From IMG/VR virus record IMGVR_UViG_3300033171_000001, positions 1-64,000 of that record: a DNA stretch of 64,000 nt; one strand, 5' to 3'. The notes beneath the pieces are model-generated. The model worked only from the letters and a program-made list of their open reading frames with translations, did no database searches and was not told where the DNA came from. A program made the translations under genes and the position numbers. Shown piece after piece: positions 10,033-61,573 of this stretch; positions within the stretch are counted from its first letter, which is position 1; the number at the start of each line of letters is the position of its first letter. This stretch comes from a virus (Duplodnaviria; Caudoviricetes).

Positions 10033-10151
10033 AATTAAGCCTCGTACTTCAAATTTGTGTTTCAGTTGAGAGTTGTTATAGCGCATTTTTAGGAGACTGT
10101 CAAGCAAAAAAAGTGAGAGGTGATGCAAGTTTAATCGCATCACCTCTCTGG

Positions 10152-10264
10152 TAAATAGAGCGGGTCAGGCATTACTCTGACGCTTGCACAAGGGGGGGTC
10201 GTTTTTTGTGCTGTGCTGTACCGTTCCACACTGTGTTTCTATTTCAACACCGCCGCTCTATTTA
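10152..10264 (-). ncRNA. putative structured ncRNA 3' of the tRNA
   Basis: Perfect 12-bp closing stem TAAATAGAGCGG/CCGCTCTATTTA with three to four internal hairpins. Confidence 0.5.
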
Positions 10265-10269
10265 AATCT

Positions 10270-10362
10270 TGGGCCTACCGCACGGAATCGAACCGTGGCT
10301 AACCGCTAATCTGGCGTTCGAGTTTATAAGACTCGTCGTGCTTCCAATTACACTACGGTAGG
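10270..10362 (-). tRNA. tRNA, anticodon UAU (Ile, reads AUA), long variable arm, encoded CCA
   Basis: Acceptor CCTACCG/CGGTAGG, D loop with GG, anticodon stem CGAGT-CTTATAA-ACTCG, T arm CACGG-TTCGATT-CCGTG, C73-CCA; 93 nt. Confidence 0.85.
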
Positions 10363-56143: not shown

Positions 56144-56476
56144 ATGTCTAATTTTACTGTATATAGAGACACAGATGGTACCCTGACCTTTGAGGTTAGA
56201 AATACTGCTGGTTCTTTGATTGATTTATCTACGGCCACCGTAAAGATGGTAATTGGAACTACTGCATATGCGTTTGTGGCAGTAAAGGACGGTGCGGGGC
56301 AAGATGGGACCGGAGATACTAATGCTTCTGTTATTTTTACTAACGACGATGCTATTTGGGGTACGTTGACAGGAGACACCTATACATACCAATTAAATGT
56401 TACCGATGTTGCTTCTAAGGTTACTATCCCGGTAGAAGGGCGACTAACCATCAAGAAGCAGATACCGCAATCCTAA
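56144..56476 (+). CDS. BppU-N-like virion/baseplate domain protein
   Basis: GSLIDLSTATVKM..GDTYTYQLNVTD..EGRLTI. Confidence 0.55.
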   Translation: MSNFTVYRDTDGTLTFEVRNTAGSLIDLSTATVKMVIGTTAYAFVAVKDGAGQDGTGDTNASVIFTNDDAIWGTLTGDTYTYQLNVTDVASKVTIPVEGRLTIKKQIPQS

Positions 56477-56487
56477 TTATTGAACAA

Positions 56488-56524
56488 TAAAAAGCCCCTC
56501 TCAAAAGAAAGGGGCTTTGTTTTT
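56488..56524. terminator. bidirectional intrinsic terminator
   Basis: AAAAGCCCCT-loop-AGGGGCTTTGTTTT at the convergence point. Confidence 0.8.
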
Positions 56525-56660
56525 GGGCGGCTCCGCCGAGGACTTGAACCGCCGCACATCGTCCTTGATGTCTAAAATACAAGGCTCATAGATGCGTTTT
56601 CTACACGCCTTCGGGCTTGCAAACCGTTCAGCGATATGTCCTCACCACCGGGAGCCGCCC
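56525..56660 (-). ncRNA. unknown structured RNA with tRNA-like T loop
   Basis: 10-bp terminal stem GGGCGGCTCC/GGAGCCGCCC, GGTTCAAGTCC, internal hairpins. Confidence 0.6.
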
Positions 56661-56670
56661 CACAATAAAA

Positions 56671-56856
56671 TTATTCGCCTTTAATTTTTGTCGAAACCTT
56701 GTCGATGTCGCATATCATTTCTACAGAGATAACAACGTCATCGGCGCAGTCGGCGGCGTCACGAATATCCACCGCAACGACATGAATCGTGTTAACTTCG
56801 CCTGAGGGACGCTTGCTTTTTACGCAATAGATTTGACCTTTTTCCATCTTTCTCAC
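56671..56856 (-). CDS. hypothetical protein
   Basis: 61 aa, RBS. Confidence 0.55.
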   Translation of the reverse strand: MRKMEKGQIYCVKSKRPSGEVNTIHVVAVDIRDAADCADDVVISVEMICDIDKVSTKIKGE

Positions 56857-56867
56857 CTCATGTTTCC

Positions 56868-57299
56868 CTATTTGTCATCATTCTGGCCGGTGGCCGCTTG
56901 CATCTGCCGATAGTAGTCCATGGCAACGGACTCATCGGCGTAGAATGACCGCAAGTTGGTGTGGAGCATTGCAGCCGCCTTCCTGAGGAATCCGCACTTC
57001 TTCTTGTCGGTGTTGAAGGCGGTGGCCCCGCCTGGCGCGGTCGCACTGGTGGACAGGATGACCACCTGATCGTAGCCGTACTTTTCGGCAATGCGCTTGG
57101 CCTCGGAGATGGGGATTTCTTGCGCCAGCTCCTTTTCTAGGGCGACTCGGTTAGTTGTCTTCATATCGTCAAACGGACTGTACTCCTCGTAGCCATACCG
57201 CAGTATTTTTCCGATTGCCTGTTGAGCTTCGCCAAGCTCTTCAAGCATCAGGGCCAGTCTCTCATGTTCAGCTGGTGTCGGTTGATTAAAACCACTCAT
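56868..57299 (-). CDS. MazG-like N-terminus fused to an unrelated domain
   Basis: LLEELGEAQQAIGKILRYG-like motif (LMLEELGEAQQAIGKILRYG), then an abrupt change. Confidence 0.5.
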   Translation of the reverse strand: MSGFNQPTPAEHERLALMLEELGEAQQAIGKILRYGYEEYSPFDDMKTTNRVALEKELAQEIPISEAKRIAEKYGYDQVVILSTSATAPGGATAFNTDKKKCGFLRKAAAMLHTNLRSFYADESVAMDYYRQMQAATGQNDDK

Positions 57300-58519: not shown

Positions 58520-61500
58520 TTACATTTCACATTTATCACCCGTACAATTAAATTCCCTACTACCTTCTGTTTTATCTTCATTTTCAAAAACACTTAGTTG
58601 TAGAAAATCCATTACAGGTAGATTTTTACTCAATTCAATAAACTCTTCTTCTGTACATTCCGTATAAGGGGCGAGTGGATAAACTCCCCCATCATAAGGA
58701 AGAAAACTAATACCACTAACATAATTCCAATGTTCATACACCCAAGAACCAACCTTGAGCCATTCATTTTCTTTTACATAAACAGTAATAGAGGGTTTAT
58801 GTTCACACCAATATTTCTGAAGCATTAACCAGTATTCCAATTGTTCCAGAGCGTCTACATCTTGACGCATAACCGCACTTTCCGGTGATTTTATTGGAAA
58901 TGGAAATACTGCTGTGGAACACCCCTCCCTAGTCTGCCCAACCTCGGGTTCCCATTTCATACCAATGGAGTTGAGGTACTTAAATACAGGATCACCAGTG
59001 GATACTCGCACTCTCCGAACATAGTACGGACTAAATCGCGGGTGTAGTCCGCTTGCAGAATCAACTAATTGCGATACTGTTCCGCTGGGCTTGGTACAGG
59101 TAATTGCTGCTGGCATATTGATATGAAGGGCTTTAGACCATTCCTCTGCGGTTTCAATAGCAGTTTCCTTCATCTCTGTCAACCATGCTTTGGCTTTTTT
59201 AGACACTTTTCCAAGGATCGGATGATCCCGTAGTCCAGTTAAACTAACACCGAGTAGGCGTTCATCTTCTGTATTGTTTTTCCAAGATCGGGAAAGGAAA
59301 CCAAAATCAGTAAGAGTGGATTGTAAACAACCCAATACCGTTGCGTATCTTACTTTTTGCCTAAGAGTTTGTTTAGTATCTTCTGGACGAATAACTACTT
59401 CTGTTAGATTGCAAAAAGAATTGGGACGAAGAATAATCTCAGCACAGGGGTTTACCCCCCAGGGGTATCCAGTTTCCCTTCGTCCGGTTTGAGAAACGAT
59501 AAATTCCATAGACTCTCTATTAATAATACCCCGCTCACCACTTCCACTACGAGCTAATACCAACCAATCTTCCATGAACTGAGTAGCATCCGGTTTTTCA
59601 GTGTAAACAATGGAGTTATTAGCAAGCATACGTTGTGGGTTAGTATTCCAAAATTCCCCGTCCTTGGCATGTGCCATTCTGTCATCTGAACGATTTGAAA
59701 GAGAAATACAGGCTGAATTATGTACAATATATCCGTTTGCATTGAATGCGTTAATTTCGTCAACTTCAATATCATAGGTGTCTACATATCGTCCATCTTC
59801 GATAGATACTACCATATCAGGCATAAGCGAGGTATTCTTTATGAAACCCCTATCAATTGCAGTGTCCATTGTAATGAAACCGTCTCGTTTCCATCCAGTA
59901 GGGTATCCACACCACGCAGAAGGAATTTTGTAATCAAATGGACCCCCTGATACTGTGATACAATCTGCTTTTCCACTTACACTAAACGGTTTAATATGTT
60001 CGATCCACTTTCTCTTGTTTGTCATTCCCGTAACAAAAATTGAATACGCGTCAGAGTATCCTTCTCGTTTAATAGTGTCTACGCGACTTCCGATTCCTAA
60101 TGATGTTAATGCCAATACTGTATCATTTTTTAGTTGATTGTATATCGTATTAACCTGTTCACACACCGAATCTGCCCTGCCTCTCCCATCTGCATCAAAC
60201 AAGCCCGCTAAGAAGGCTGATCGAACGGGTTTAGTCGCATTTAATATATATTGGGGTATATATAATTCTGAACTATTTTTCAAATTATGTGACATCCATT
60301 GCGATATAGATACGGAGTTCAATCTCAATCGTAGGCAATCCCCATGTCCTTGACTTACCTTACTATCAATACCAAAATATTCATAAGCAATATTTTTACA
60401 TTTAGTAAGGACTTCTTTTTGTAGGGTGTGTTGGGTTATTTCTATACCTTTCGGGGATATATGTCCATTTCCTACAATTACACCAAACAAATACGCCACA
60501 TCTTCATTAATATATGCAGGAAATGTCAGTTGCTTTGAATTAAAGTGATTAGAATTAGTAAACTCCGGTAGGGGGATTAATTCGGAACCCTCATACCCAT
60601 TAGTATCCCATACTAACATATCCCCTACACAAACATCCTTAGCCTGTTTGTAGGTAATATCTATTGTATTTTTTTCGAAAACCGCAACCCTATGATTAAG
60701 GGTACACTCCAGTTCACTAAATCGGGTTTTAAACAACAACGTTTTTTGTTTGCCGGAAAAAACCTTACCCTTAATTGGATATGTCTTACCTGCATACAAT
60801 ACCTTATCAGTATCTTCAAGGCTGTGCATACTTTTAATACCATTATTTGTCATTATAGGCGTGTCAAATGGTAAACACCTACGAACACCCCCTACAACAA
60901 CAATAGCAGCCACCTTACACATAATATCGTGACACTCAATCGAAGATAGTTTTCTACCTTGAGCGTTTTTAAAAAGCTGCGTTGTGAATTTAATTAGATC
61001 ATCTAAAGGCTCTGGTCCACTGGCTCTTCCACCAAATGTTTTAAGAATAGAACCCTTGGGACGAATTTTAGATAGATCGTATTTAGGAATCTCGCCTTTA
61101 TATAAATGCCGCAAATACCGGTAGAATCCGTCTGCCCACCCTTTTTTTGAATCGGAAAACTCAACCACATCTACTACTTCTTTTAACTGAGGCACTTCCG
61201 GTAATTTGTTAACCTCTTGTCTTTCAACAGAAAAACCAACGCCTGTCCCGTTCATTAAAATATATAGACATTCTGCAAATGCTTTTATGTTATTAACTGC
61301 TAAATAGGAACAGTTATATCCTGCAATATTTTCCCTGTCCAGTGCGGGTCCAGCCGCCCATAATGCCCGCATAGAAGGCATTACGTCTAAATTAATAATC
61401 GAAGTAATAGCAGAGTTAAATTCTGCTTCTTTCTCCGATGGTACTCTGGAAATAAAAAAGTCTTTATACCTATTAACAGTTTCTTTCCATGTCTCTCTGC

Positions 61501-61573
61501 ATTTTTCTTTCTCTTTCCATCGACTATAGGTTCTAGTATAAATAAATTCTTGGTAACTGGTTGGAAAATCCAT
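58520..61573 (-). CDS. nrdJ: class II (B12) monomeric ribonucleotide reductase with intein
   Basis: MPSMR, NCS, GTGVGF, GGVRR/SACISL, NPCAE, KPSGT, HKPSIT, C-terminal CTGDKC. Confidence 0.92.
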   Translation of the reverse strand: MDFPTSYQEFIYTRTYSRWKEKEKCRETWKETVNRYKDFFISRVPSEKEAEFNSAITSIINLDVMPSMRALWAAGPALDRENIAGYNCSYLAVNNIKAFAECLYILMNGTGVGFSVERQEVNKLPEVPQLKEVVDVVEFSDSKKGWADGFYRYLRHLYKGEIPKYDLSKIRPKGSILKTFGGRASGPEPLDDLIKFTTQLFKNAQGRKLSSIECHDIMCKVAAIVVVGGVRRCLPFDTPIMTNNGIKSMHSLEDTDKVLYAGKTYPIKGKVFSGKQKTLLFKTRFSELECTLNHRVAVFEKNTIDITYKQAKDVCVGDMLVWDTNGYEGSELIPLPEFTNSNHFNSKQLTFPAYINEDVAYLFGVIVGNGHISPKGIEITQHTLQKEVLTKCKNIAYEYFGIDSKVSQGHGDCLRLRLNSVSISQWMSHNLKNSSELYIPQYILNATKPVRSAFLAGLFDADGRGRADSVCEQVNTIYNQLKNDTVLALTSLGIGSRVDTIKREGYSDAYSIFVTGMTNKRKWIEHIKPFSVSGKADCITVSGGPFDYKIPSAWCGYPTGWKRDGFITMDTAIDRGFIKNTSLMPDMVVSIEDGRYVDTYDIEVDEINAFNANGYIVHNSACISLSNRSDDRMAHAKDGEFWNTNPQRMLANNSIVYTEKPDATQFMEDWLVLARSGSGERGIINRESMEFIVSQTGRRETGYPWGVNPCAEIILRPNSFCNLTEVVIRPEDTKQTLRQKVRYATVLGCLQSTLTDFGFLSRSWKNNTEDERLLGVSLTGLRDHPILGKVSKKAKAWLTEMKETAIETAEEWSKALHINMPAAITCTKPSGTVSQLVDSASGLHPRFSPYYVRRVRVSTGDPVFKYLNSIGMKWEPEVGQTREGCSTAVFPFPIKSPESAVMRQDVDALEQLEYWLMLQKYWCEHKPSITVYVKENEWLKVGSWVYEHWNYVSGISFLPYDGGVYPLAPYTECTEEEFIELSKNLPVMDFLQLSVFENEDKTEGSREFNCTGDKCEM
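59717..60877 (-). mobile_element. intein (387 aa) with LAGLIDADG endonuclease
   Basis: Starts CLPFDT, ends YIVHN before Ser; FLAGLFDADG. Confidence 0.92.

Follow-up and report, generated by a model that had tools for sequence, protein, structure and literature searches.

A structured RNA at the end of a phage nucleotide-metabolism operon and its probable descent from a host class II tRNA-Tyr

Bacteriophage T4 carries in its tRNA cluster two RNAs of about 120-140 nt with tRNA-like ends, "species 1 and 2" (RNA C/D), which are expressed and stable and whose function is unknown; by their description they can be likened to the element presented here. Rod-shaped substrates of the RNase III type at the ends of phage operons are also established phage biology. 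Phage tRNAs are known to act against host defences, as in the case of the T5 tRNA-Tyr against retron-Eco7 PtuAB and of the T1 and T7 tRNA-Lys against PrrC, and these counter-defence tRNAs are canonical, highly expressed and decoding, and replenish the pool (PMC11555353). In plant mitochondria, the t-elements are non-canonical tRNA-like structures with a GGTTCRANYCC motif located in mRNAs near coding regions, and it has been proposed, and partly shown, that they direct cleavage by RNase P and RNase Z and thus define mRNA ends (PMC1920247). We analysed a tRNA-like element located in a stretch of 64,000 nucleotides (the window) from an IMG/VR virus record of 85,259 bp.

Position and predicted fold of the element

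The element is a 136-nt structured RNA encoded on the minus strand (56525-56660), which we consider to be derived from tRNA-Tyr (see below). Both strands were read, and RNA positions are numbered here along the minus strand, from nt 1 (56660) to nt 136 (56525). The RNA lies at the end of a minus-strand nucleotide-metabolism operon that includes an intein-bearing class II ribonucleotide reductase, a ThyX-like protein, a 143-aa MazG-like fusion and a 58-aa ORF (56671-56847, minus strand). The operon ends at 56671 and the RNA starts 10 nt downstream of the stop codon. Directly 3' of the RNA, as expected from the earlier note made on this DNA, we found an intrinsic terminator (56491-56518) that is bidirectional and common to sister phages, and that also ends the plus-strand lysis and structural module (stop codon at 56476). 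A consensus scan recovered no promoter belonging to the RNA itself; in the simplest reading, the nucleotide-metabolism operon has the RNA as its 3' UTR and is presumably co-transcribed with it.

Two genes of this operon deserve a comment of their own. The 143-aa gene (56868-57299, minus strand) is a fusion of two parts found as separate genes elsewhere, its residues 1-62 being 79% identical to a 106-aa MazG-like protein (P0003) of a Pseudodesulfovibrio MAG prophage and its residues 58-143 being 82% identical to an 87-aa protein (P0002). The ribonucleotide reductase (58520-61573, minus strand; 1017 aa) contains an intein with a LAGLIDADG homing endonuclease, and its orthologue in a sister phage (L146:2061-3953) has 630 aa and no intein Pfam match.

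The predicted fold of the window copy is a rod formed by three helices (P1-P2-P3) and capped by three hairpins. The 5' strand of P1 (nt 1-10, 56651-56660), which would correspond to nt 2-7 of the ancestral acceptor followed by nt 8-11 of the tRNA frame, is paired with its perfect complement (nt 127-136, 56525-56534), and this 10-mer is present at just these two sites across the 85-kb genome. P2 joins nt 17-23 (56638-56644), in the former D-loop/D-stem region, to nt 118-124 (56537-56543). P3 joins nt 26-32 (56629-56635) to nt 107-113 (56548-56554) and closes a branched core (56556-56625) whose hairpins (nt 36-47, 50-80 and 90-105) stand in place of the anticodon arm, the last one at the position of the class II variable arm. 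The T-loop motif GGTTCAAGTCC (56540-56550) was identified by motif count and with a tRNA-Tyr model. It matches the canonical consensus GGTTCRANYCC, for which there are two matches in 64 kb, this one and the real tRNA at 10.3 kb, for a chance expectation of 0.4.

All the motifs listed in the earlier note were thus recovered on the minus strand, i.e., the 10-bp terminal helix, the T-loop motif, the D-loop-like stretch and the three hairpins, and both the alternative rod and the ATATCG/CGATGT pairing are in the sequence. The anticodon arm is indeed missing, the window copy having no 7-nt anticodon loop. The three hairpins hold for the window copy; the GCGT/ACGC hairpin is absent from the only homologue, a prophage copy described in the next section.

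The minus-strand RNA has a minimum free energy of -62.9 kcal/mol (z = -4.3 against dinucleotide shuffles, -4.4 in a repeat run), and the plus strand folds more weakly (-49.8 kcal/mol, z = -3.0). Positions 11-126 gave z = -1.9 against shuffles and the core shared with the prophage copy (nt 26-113) a non-significant z = -1.1, while the prophage copy gave z = -0.4 to -0.8 at full length and -0.9 for its core. The signal above background in the window fold comes from the terminal helix and, to a lesser degree, from P2. All suboptimal folds of the window copy within 2 kcal/mol were rods, and forcing the T hairpin cost about 6.5 kcal/mol; the rod, previously taken for a competitor of the T arm, is therefore present and more than a competitor, being the clear minimum. 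In the prophage copy, the rod (-47.1 kcal/mol) and a cloverleaf-like fold (-46.9 kcal/mol) were isoenergetic. The folding models thus show a predicted dominance of the rod in the window phage.

The searches assigned the element to no known RNA family. The sole ARAGORN call on the window was a tRNA at 10270-10362, and in the Rfam search of the element nothing was obtained at the gathering score or at E<=10, the weak matches listed being driven by the terminator. The ARAGORN and Infernal/Rfam checks proposed earlier thus gave neither a tRNA call nor an Rfam family for the element, and the case in which it would simply belong to a known Rfam family can be set aside. The search of the whole genome with RF00005 returned the 10.3-kb tRNA only. 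With a covariance model built from ten tRNA-Tyr genes (R1) and filters off, the window copy gave no global match and a local one of 2.9 bits at the T loop; it does not fit the tRNA-Tyr model with GUA in a 7-nt loop. Its geometry departs from that of a canonical tRNA, with a 10-bp helix located 3 nt from the T stem and a T stem in which three of the five pairs are formed and two are mismatched. We also rejected a tmRNA (empty ARAGORN tmRNA search, lowered threshold included), a bacterial Y RNA of the YrlA type (no Rfam match for the element) and a retron msr/msd (a terminator follows the element); the latter two were dropped because the 85-kb genome has no TROVE/Ro domain and no RVT_1 reverse transcriptase domain.

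The end of the RNA had been read as C73 followed by CCA. Homology places these C residues in the 3' strand of the ancestral acceptor stem, and what looks like C73-CCA is acceptor sequence followed by the A-rich spacer, hence not a CCA end; the resemblance to the 10.3-kb tRNA in this respect is coincidental. The latter, the sole tRNA of the 85-kb genome (10273-10362, minus strand), has a UAU anticodon, a long variable arm, a score of 48.2 bits to RF00005, a C1:G72 pair, C73 and an encoded CCA. Between this tRNA-Ile(UAU)-like gene and a terminator lies a second structured RNA candidate (10145-10270, minus strand) with a 12-bp closing helix and several hairpins (-37.2 kcal/mol, z = -4.5), and no sequence similarity was found between this candidate and the 56.5-kb element.

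Relatives of the element and of its slot

Ten further metagenome contigs of the same phage carry the RNA with 100% identity and are hence uninformative, and diverged relatives were reached via the neighbouring proteins. The route through the 143-aa MazG-like gene led to unrelated contexts. The 58-aa ORF has a single relative among 5.8 billion proteins, 88% identical and encoded on the chromosome of Pseudodesulfovibrio profundus, in a prophage accessory region with Dam-type methylases and at 1.4 kb from xis/int. A copy of the RNA follows this ORF (L151:6188-~6321), and the IMG/VR record L233 corresponds to the same prophage. The ORF and the RNA form together a block of 338 bp (56875 to 56538, minus strand) with 93.8% identity between the window and the prophage. 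In the latter, the RNA is intercistronic: a ribosome-binding site comes next, then a 93-aa ORF, with no terminator after the RNA. The P. profundus prophage is not integrated at tRNA-Tyr.

BLAST and pattern searches covering 42 genomes from the genus and 401 from the family yielded P. profundus only, and hence no further true homologue. The P. profundus prophage was also the sole match of a core 19-mer in IMG/VR; a core 25-mer had no match in the GTDB genome contigs and the exact 3' motif had none in IMG/VR. The 5' motif pattern had more than 118 matches, all due to chance, one of them adjoining a real tRNA. Combined 5' and T-loop patterns gave one coding-region match in IMG/VR in one scan and, in another, 38 chance matches in JGI metagenomes and 2 in IMG/VR. 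A search of the INPHARED phages in distant mode gave no match.

A 76-nt element is located directly upstream of the gene for Acb3 (a CBASS inhibitor) in a Pseudodesulfovibrio MAG prophage (L014:5793-5870 and L015:3139-3216). Its T arm is good, its closing stem resembles an acceptor and its anticodon arm is replaced by a tetraloop hairpin; ARAGORN made no call for it. As a short homologue this T-loop-bearing element was rejected, since it folds no better than shuffles (z = -0.5), matches neither the tRNA-Tyr model nor, consistently, a host tRNA, and is similar over about 30 nt only. In these prophages, differing intergenic inserts (L012:4685-4834, L014:5786-5897 and L151:6178-6344) are each found just 5' of the conserved leader ACTCAGCAT-RAGG of the next gene, a site at which these phages may repeatedly accommodate structured inserts.

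The prophage copy revealed the relationship with tRNA-Tyr. Its last 31-34 nt were about 90% identical in BLAST to sequences present in 31 of the 401 Desulfovibrionaceae genomes, and these matches are the 3' ends of tRNA-Tyr(GUA) genes of the thrU-tyrU-glyT cluster. Its 5' end is also Tyr-like, with a GUGGGG acceptor strand, a class II CCC/GGG D stem and a D loop containing GG. The outer helix displays the U3:A70 acceptor variant, found only in P. profundus among the ten tRNA-Tyr collected. Model R1 scored the prophage copies (L151 and L233) at 23.4 bits (E about 3e-4), the alignment covering the acceptor, the D arm and the T arm and placing an insert of 72 nt at the anticodon arm. The same model gave 32.7 and 29.4 bits for other real tRNAs, above the prophage copy, and the assignment to Tyr is thus based on the sequence identities and not on the score. 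These identities show the element to be a probable descendant of a host class II tRNA-Tyr. Its first description as tRNA-like but non-canonical was thus correct, and we refine it to this likely descent.

The frame of the tRNA can still be followed in the prophage copy, in which the Tyr-type acceptor is 3 bp longer, the D stem is CCC/GGG and the T arm contains a single mismatch; its anticodon arm has given way to a branched sequence of about 70 nt. Its T stem (L151:6290-6315) combines the 5' strand GGUGG of one host tRNA-Tyr variant with the 3' strand CCUCC of the other, producing a U.U mismatch. This hybrid stem suggests that a host tRNA-Tyr gene may once have recombined with this copy or converted it.

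Over nt 1-123, the window copy and L151 differ at six places (95% identity), the 5' strand of P1 being identical in both, and beyond the 3' half of the T stem the two copies seem unrelated at first sight. From our own alignment of their 3' ends with the prophage copy, we infer a 7-nt insertion in the window copy (nt 124-130, 56531-56537, minus strand) and, in the 3' strand of the old acceptor, a U-to-C change; with these two events the ends do align. The insertion and the substitution together would have produced the perfect 10-bp P1 helix, in which six pairs are those of the old acceptor and the four new inner pairs are provided by the last 4 nt of the insertion. The new pairs engage nt 8-11 of the tRNA frame, i.e., the 8-9 linker and the first half of the D stem. 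The former D loop is now paired with the 3' half of the T arm in P2, which has 7 bp like P3; in the homologue, one pair of P2 is broken and another shows a wobble change.

Sister phages inform on the slot itself. L146 and L147, in which the 110-aa neighbour is 94% identical and the ThyX-like protein 70% identical to those of the window phage, have the same terminator and flank, and carry a canonical 76-nt tRNA-Thr(UGU) with an encoded CCA between ThyX and the terminator (L146:1093-1168 and L147:1251-1326). The more distant L238 (ThyX-like protein 61% identical) also has this tRNA with its encoded CCA (L238:3322-3397), and in all three the tRNA directly precedes the same type of A-rich spacer and bidirectional terminator. 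In L148 and L149 (66-67% identity), the slot contains the terminator only. The slot was thus ancestrally a tRNA slot, since L146, L147 and L238 carry tRNA-Thr(UGU) there. No tRNA-Thr was found anywhere in the window phage in the whole-genome RF00005 search: this phage has lost the tRNA-Thr(UGU) kept by its sisters, and the RNA took over the slot.

The first 10 nt of the RNA (56651-56660) recur in the sister tRNA-Thr (L146:1093-1103) as the 10 nt that precede its terminal A, an identity that covers its acceptor 3' strand, its discriminator and CC. The 3' strand of the RNA is therefore the exact reverse complement of that end. This 10-nt identity may be a coincidence or a recombination footprint, and for the latter we found no consistent scenario.

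Selection on the element and its possible roles

Covariation could be assessed from two distinct copies only, 5% apart. In this two-sequence alignment, none of the 33 pairs of the rod showed compensatory changes, three had one-sided changes compatible with wobble pairing and two were broken. A decayed tRNA with no conserved homologs, the outcome that the earlier note had set against its own claim, is thus nearly what was observed: a single homologue was found, with 95% identity, and covariation is absent. Within the 338-bp block, the RNA diverged as much as its flanks, and the 58-aa ORF differs between the window and the prophage by eight nonsynonymous-codon differences versus two synonymous ones; purifying selection is consequently not visible. 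Four sites could be polarised by comparison with tRNA-Tyr, and at each of them the window state is derived and pairs better in the rod. Reverting the four substitutions together cost merely 1.6 kcal/mol, and 28% of random substitutions were equally "stabilising", so that selection for the rod is not demonstrated. The terminal helix is closed in both copies, with 9-10 bp, though their 3' strands differ. Drift alone does not readily account for a perfect 10-bp helix obtained via an insertion, which leaves room for a selected function.

We give an even chance to our preferred explanation, that of a host class II tRNA-Tyr captured and remodelled by phages into a pseudo-tRNA or tRNA-like RNA unable to decode, whose role, if any, would be in processing or stability in cis. 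The 338-bp accessory block, with the 58-aa ORF and the RNA, would have brought the element into a Pseudodesulfovibrio-type phage, where the incoming RNA would have replaced the sister-type tRNA-Thr(UGU) before the same terminator. At a prophage-like stage, the tRNA frame would have been kept with about 70 nt of branched sequence in the place of the anticodon arm. At the stage seen in the window, the 7-nt insertion and the U-to-C change would have lengthened the acceptor to a 10-bp helix absorbing the D stem, and the D loop would have paired with the 3' half of the T arm, resulting in the rod capped by three hairpins. The RNA would be transcribed as the 3' UTR of the nucleotide-metabolism operon, ending at the intrinsic terminator. 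Any activity would then be exerted in cis at the 3' end of the operon, by a tRNA-derived structure involved in processing or stability, and in the prophage this putative structure would punctuate two cistrons; the rod form could alternatively serve as a substrate of the RNase III type. Judging from its sequence, the element probably neither decodes nor is charged as an amino-acid-carrying tRNA, because it lacks an anticodon loop, A73 and the cloverleaf geometry.

A neutral relic carried along with the block may be a substantial part of the best explanation, and is almost as likely as a cis processing or stability structure. As a complete account, it is a possible though rather doubtful alternative, in which a prophage would have acquired a host tRNA-Tyr gene close to its int/att end; an insertion would have disrupted this gene, and recombination would later have carried it into the phage, the 10-bp helix being the by-product of a small templated duplication or inversion. 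The uniform divergence over the block and the dN of the adjacent ORF, which is not below its dS, agree with such a relic, as do the rarity of the element, a core that folds no better than shuffles, the low signal of the prophage copy (z = -0.4 to -0.8) and the hybrid prophage T stem, which suggests recombination with host tRNA-Tyr. However, a perfect 10-bp complement at a distance of 116 nt would hardly arise unless templated or selected, the phage retained the element while a functional tRNA-Thr was displaced, and the terminal helix of 9-10 bp is closed in both copies.

It seems unlikely that the element acts as a functional mimic or decoy of tRNA-Tyr, sequestering or misdirecting a host factor such as a tRNA-Tyr-degrading nuclease and sparing the pool of real tRNA. 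We would likewise attach a low probability to a selected non-decoding mimic of tRNA-Tyr, which would be a body-only decoy or processing module with the acceptor/T-loop signature kept and the anticodon discarded. If true, such a mimic would be a bacterial-phage counterpart of the viral tRNA-like structures, aimed at a host factor directed to tRNA-Tyr. The derivation of the element from tRNA-Tyr fits with this possibility, as does its association with accessory regions of the anti-defence type in temperate phages (Dam-type methylases and xis/int in L151), with MazG-like and Acb3 genes in related prophages. The long closing helix present in both copies, although built with different 3' strands, is also in its favour, and a phage tRNA-Tyr is a documented counter to retron-Eco7 PtuAB (PMC11555353); that precedent, however, supplies a functional tRNA rather than a decoy. 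Moreover, the anticodon loop is gone, and the window copy no longer has the acceptor/T geometry, its T-loop 3' half being buried in P2, which argues against faithful tRNA mimicry. The switchable ncRNA suggested in the earlier note is, like the mimic, a hypothetical role. There is also neither covariation nor enrichment, with two loci across IMG/VR, the JGI metagenomes, GTDB and the 42 genus and 401 family genomes.

Finally, an intron-containing tRNA (Thr-UGU or Tyr) that would become functional and decodable once its central insert is removed is very improbable and largely refuted: ARAGORN, with introns allowed and a threshold of 90%, does propose a tRNA-Thr(UGU) with a 43-nt insert, and the slot holds tRNA-Thr(UGU) in sister phages, but this solution is below threshold, with its insert at the non-canonical 31/32 instead of 37/38, one acceptor mismatch, a weak D stem and two T-stem mismatches, the proposed anticodon stem is broken in the homologue (A-U to A.C), the homology is to tRNA-Tyr and not to the tRNA-Thr of the sisters, and there is no splicing signature, be it a group I core, a bulge-helix-bulge motif or a match to an Rfam intron family.

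The element thus fails the tests for a tRNA, a tmRNA, a Y RNA, a retron RNA and an intron-containing tRNA, and is best filed as a tRNA-derived non-decoding element. It is known so far from two loci, in Pseudodesulfovibrio phages.

Comparison with known tRNA-derived elements

The element documents the life history of a tRNA gene in phages, with capture from the host, loss of the anticodon arm, extension of the acceptor and conversion to a rod, a conserved tRNA slot having also been taken from a working tRNA-Thr. Should a host factor bind the RNA, or should it prove to be processed, it would be one of the few bacterial cases in which a phage exploits a tRNA-derived RNA that does not decode, with ties to current work on the defences that target tRNA-Tyr. 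If it is a relic, it calls for caution, as an intergenic phage sequence that combines a T loop with a long closing stem does not necessarily represent a new class of RNA.

The closest relative is the host class II tRNA-Tyr(GUA) of Desulfovibrionaceae (e.g., L190:1502-1587 in P. profundus), with which the element shares the acceptor sequence, including U3:A70 in the prophage copy, the 3-bp CCC/GGG D stem, a hairpin at the position of the long variable arm, the T loop and the 3' half of the T stem. It differs from it by the branched sequence of about 70 nt found instead of the anticodon stem-loop, by an acceptor of 9-10 bp, a shortened D loop and a mismatched T stem, and by the absence of A73-CCA. 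With the phage tRNAs that counter defences, it has in common to be phage-borne, related to tRNA-Tyr and located in an accessory region, whereas it has no anticodon loop and, in the window copy, no cloverleaf.

The tRNA fragments and pseudo-tRNAs of integrative elements (bioRxiv 10.1101/2022.07.05.498093) are also tRNA-derived, non-decoding and associated with prophages or integrases. Unlike them, the element is not a 3' fragment at an att site: it has both tRNA halves and is located 1.4 kb inside the prophage. The t-elements of plant mitochondria belong to a different setting from that of a bacterial phage, and the window copy, unlike them, favours the rod over the cloverleaf. Like the t-elements, the element combines GGTTCRANYCC with a location adjacent to coding sequence, the window copy lying 10 nt past a stop codon and the L151 copy being intercistronic.
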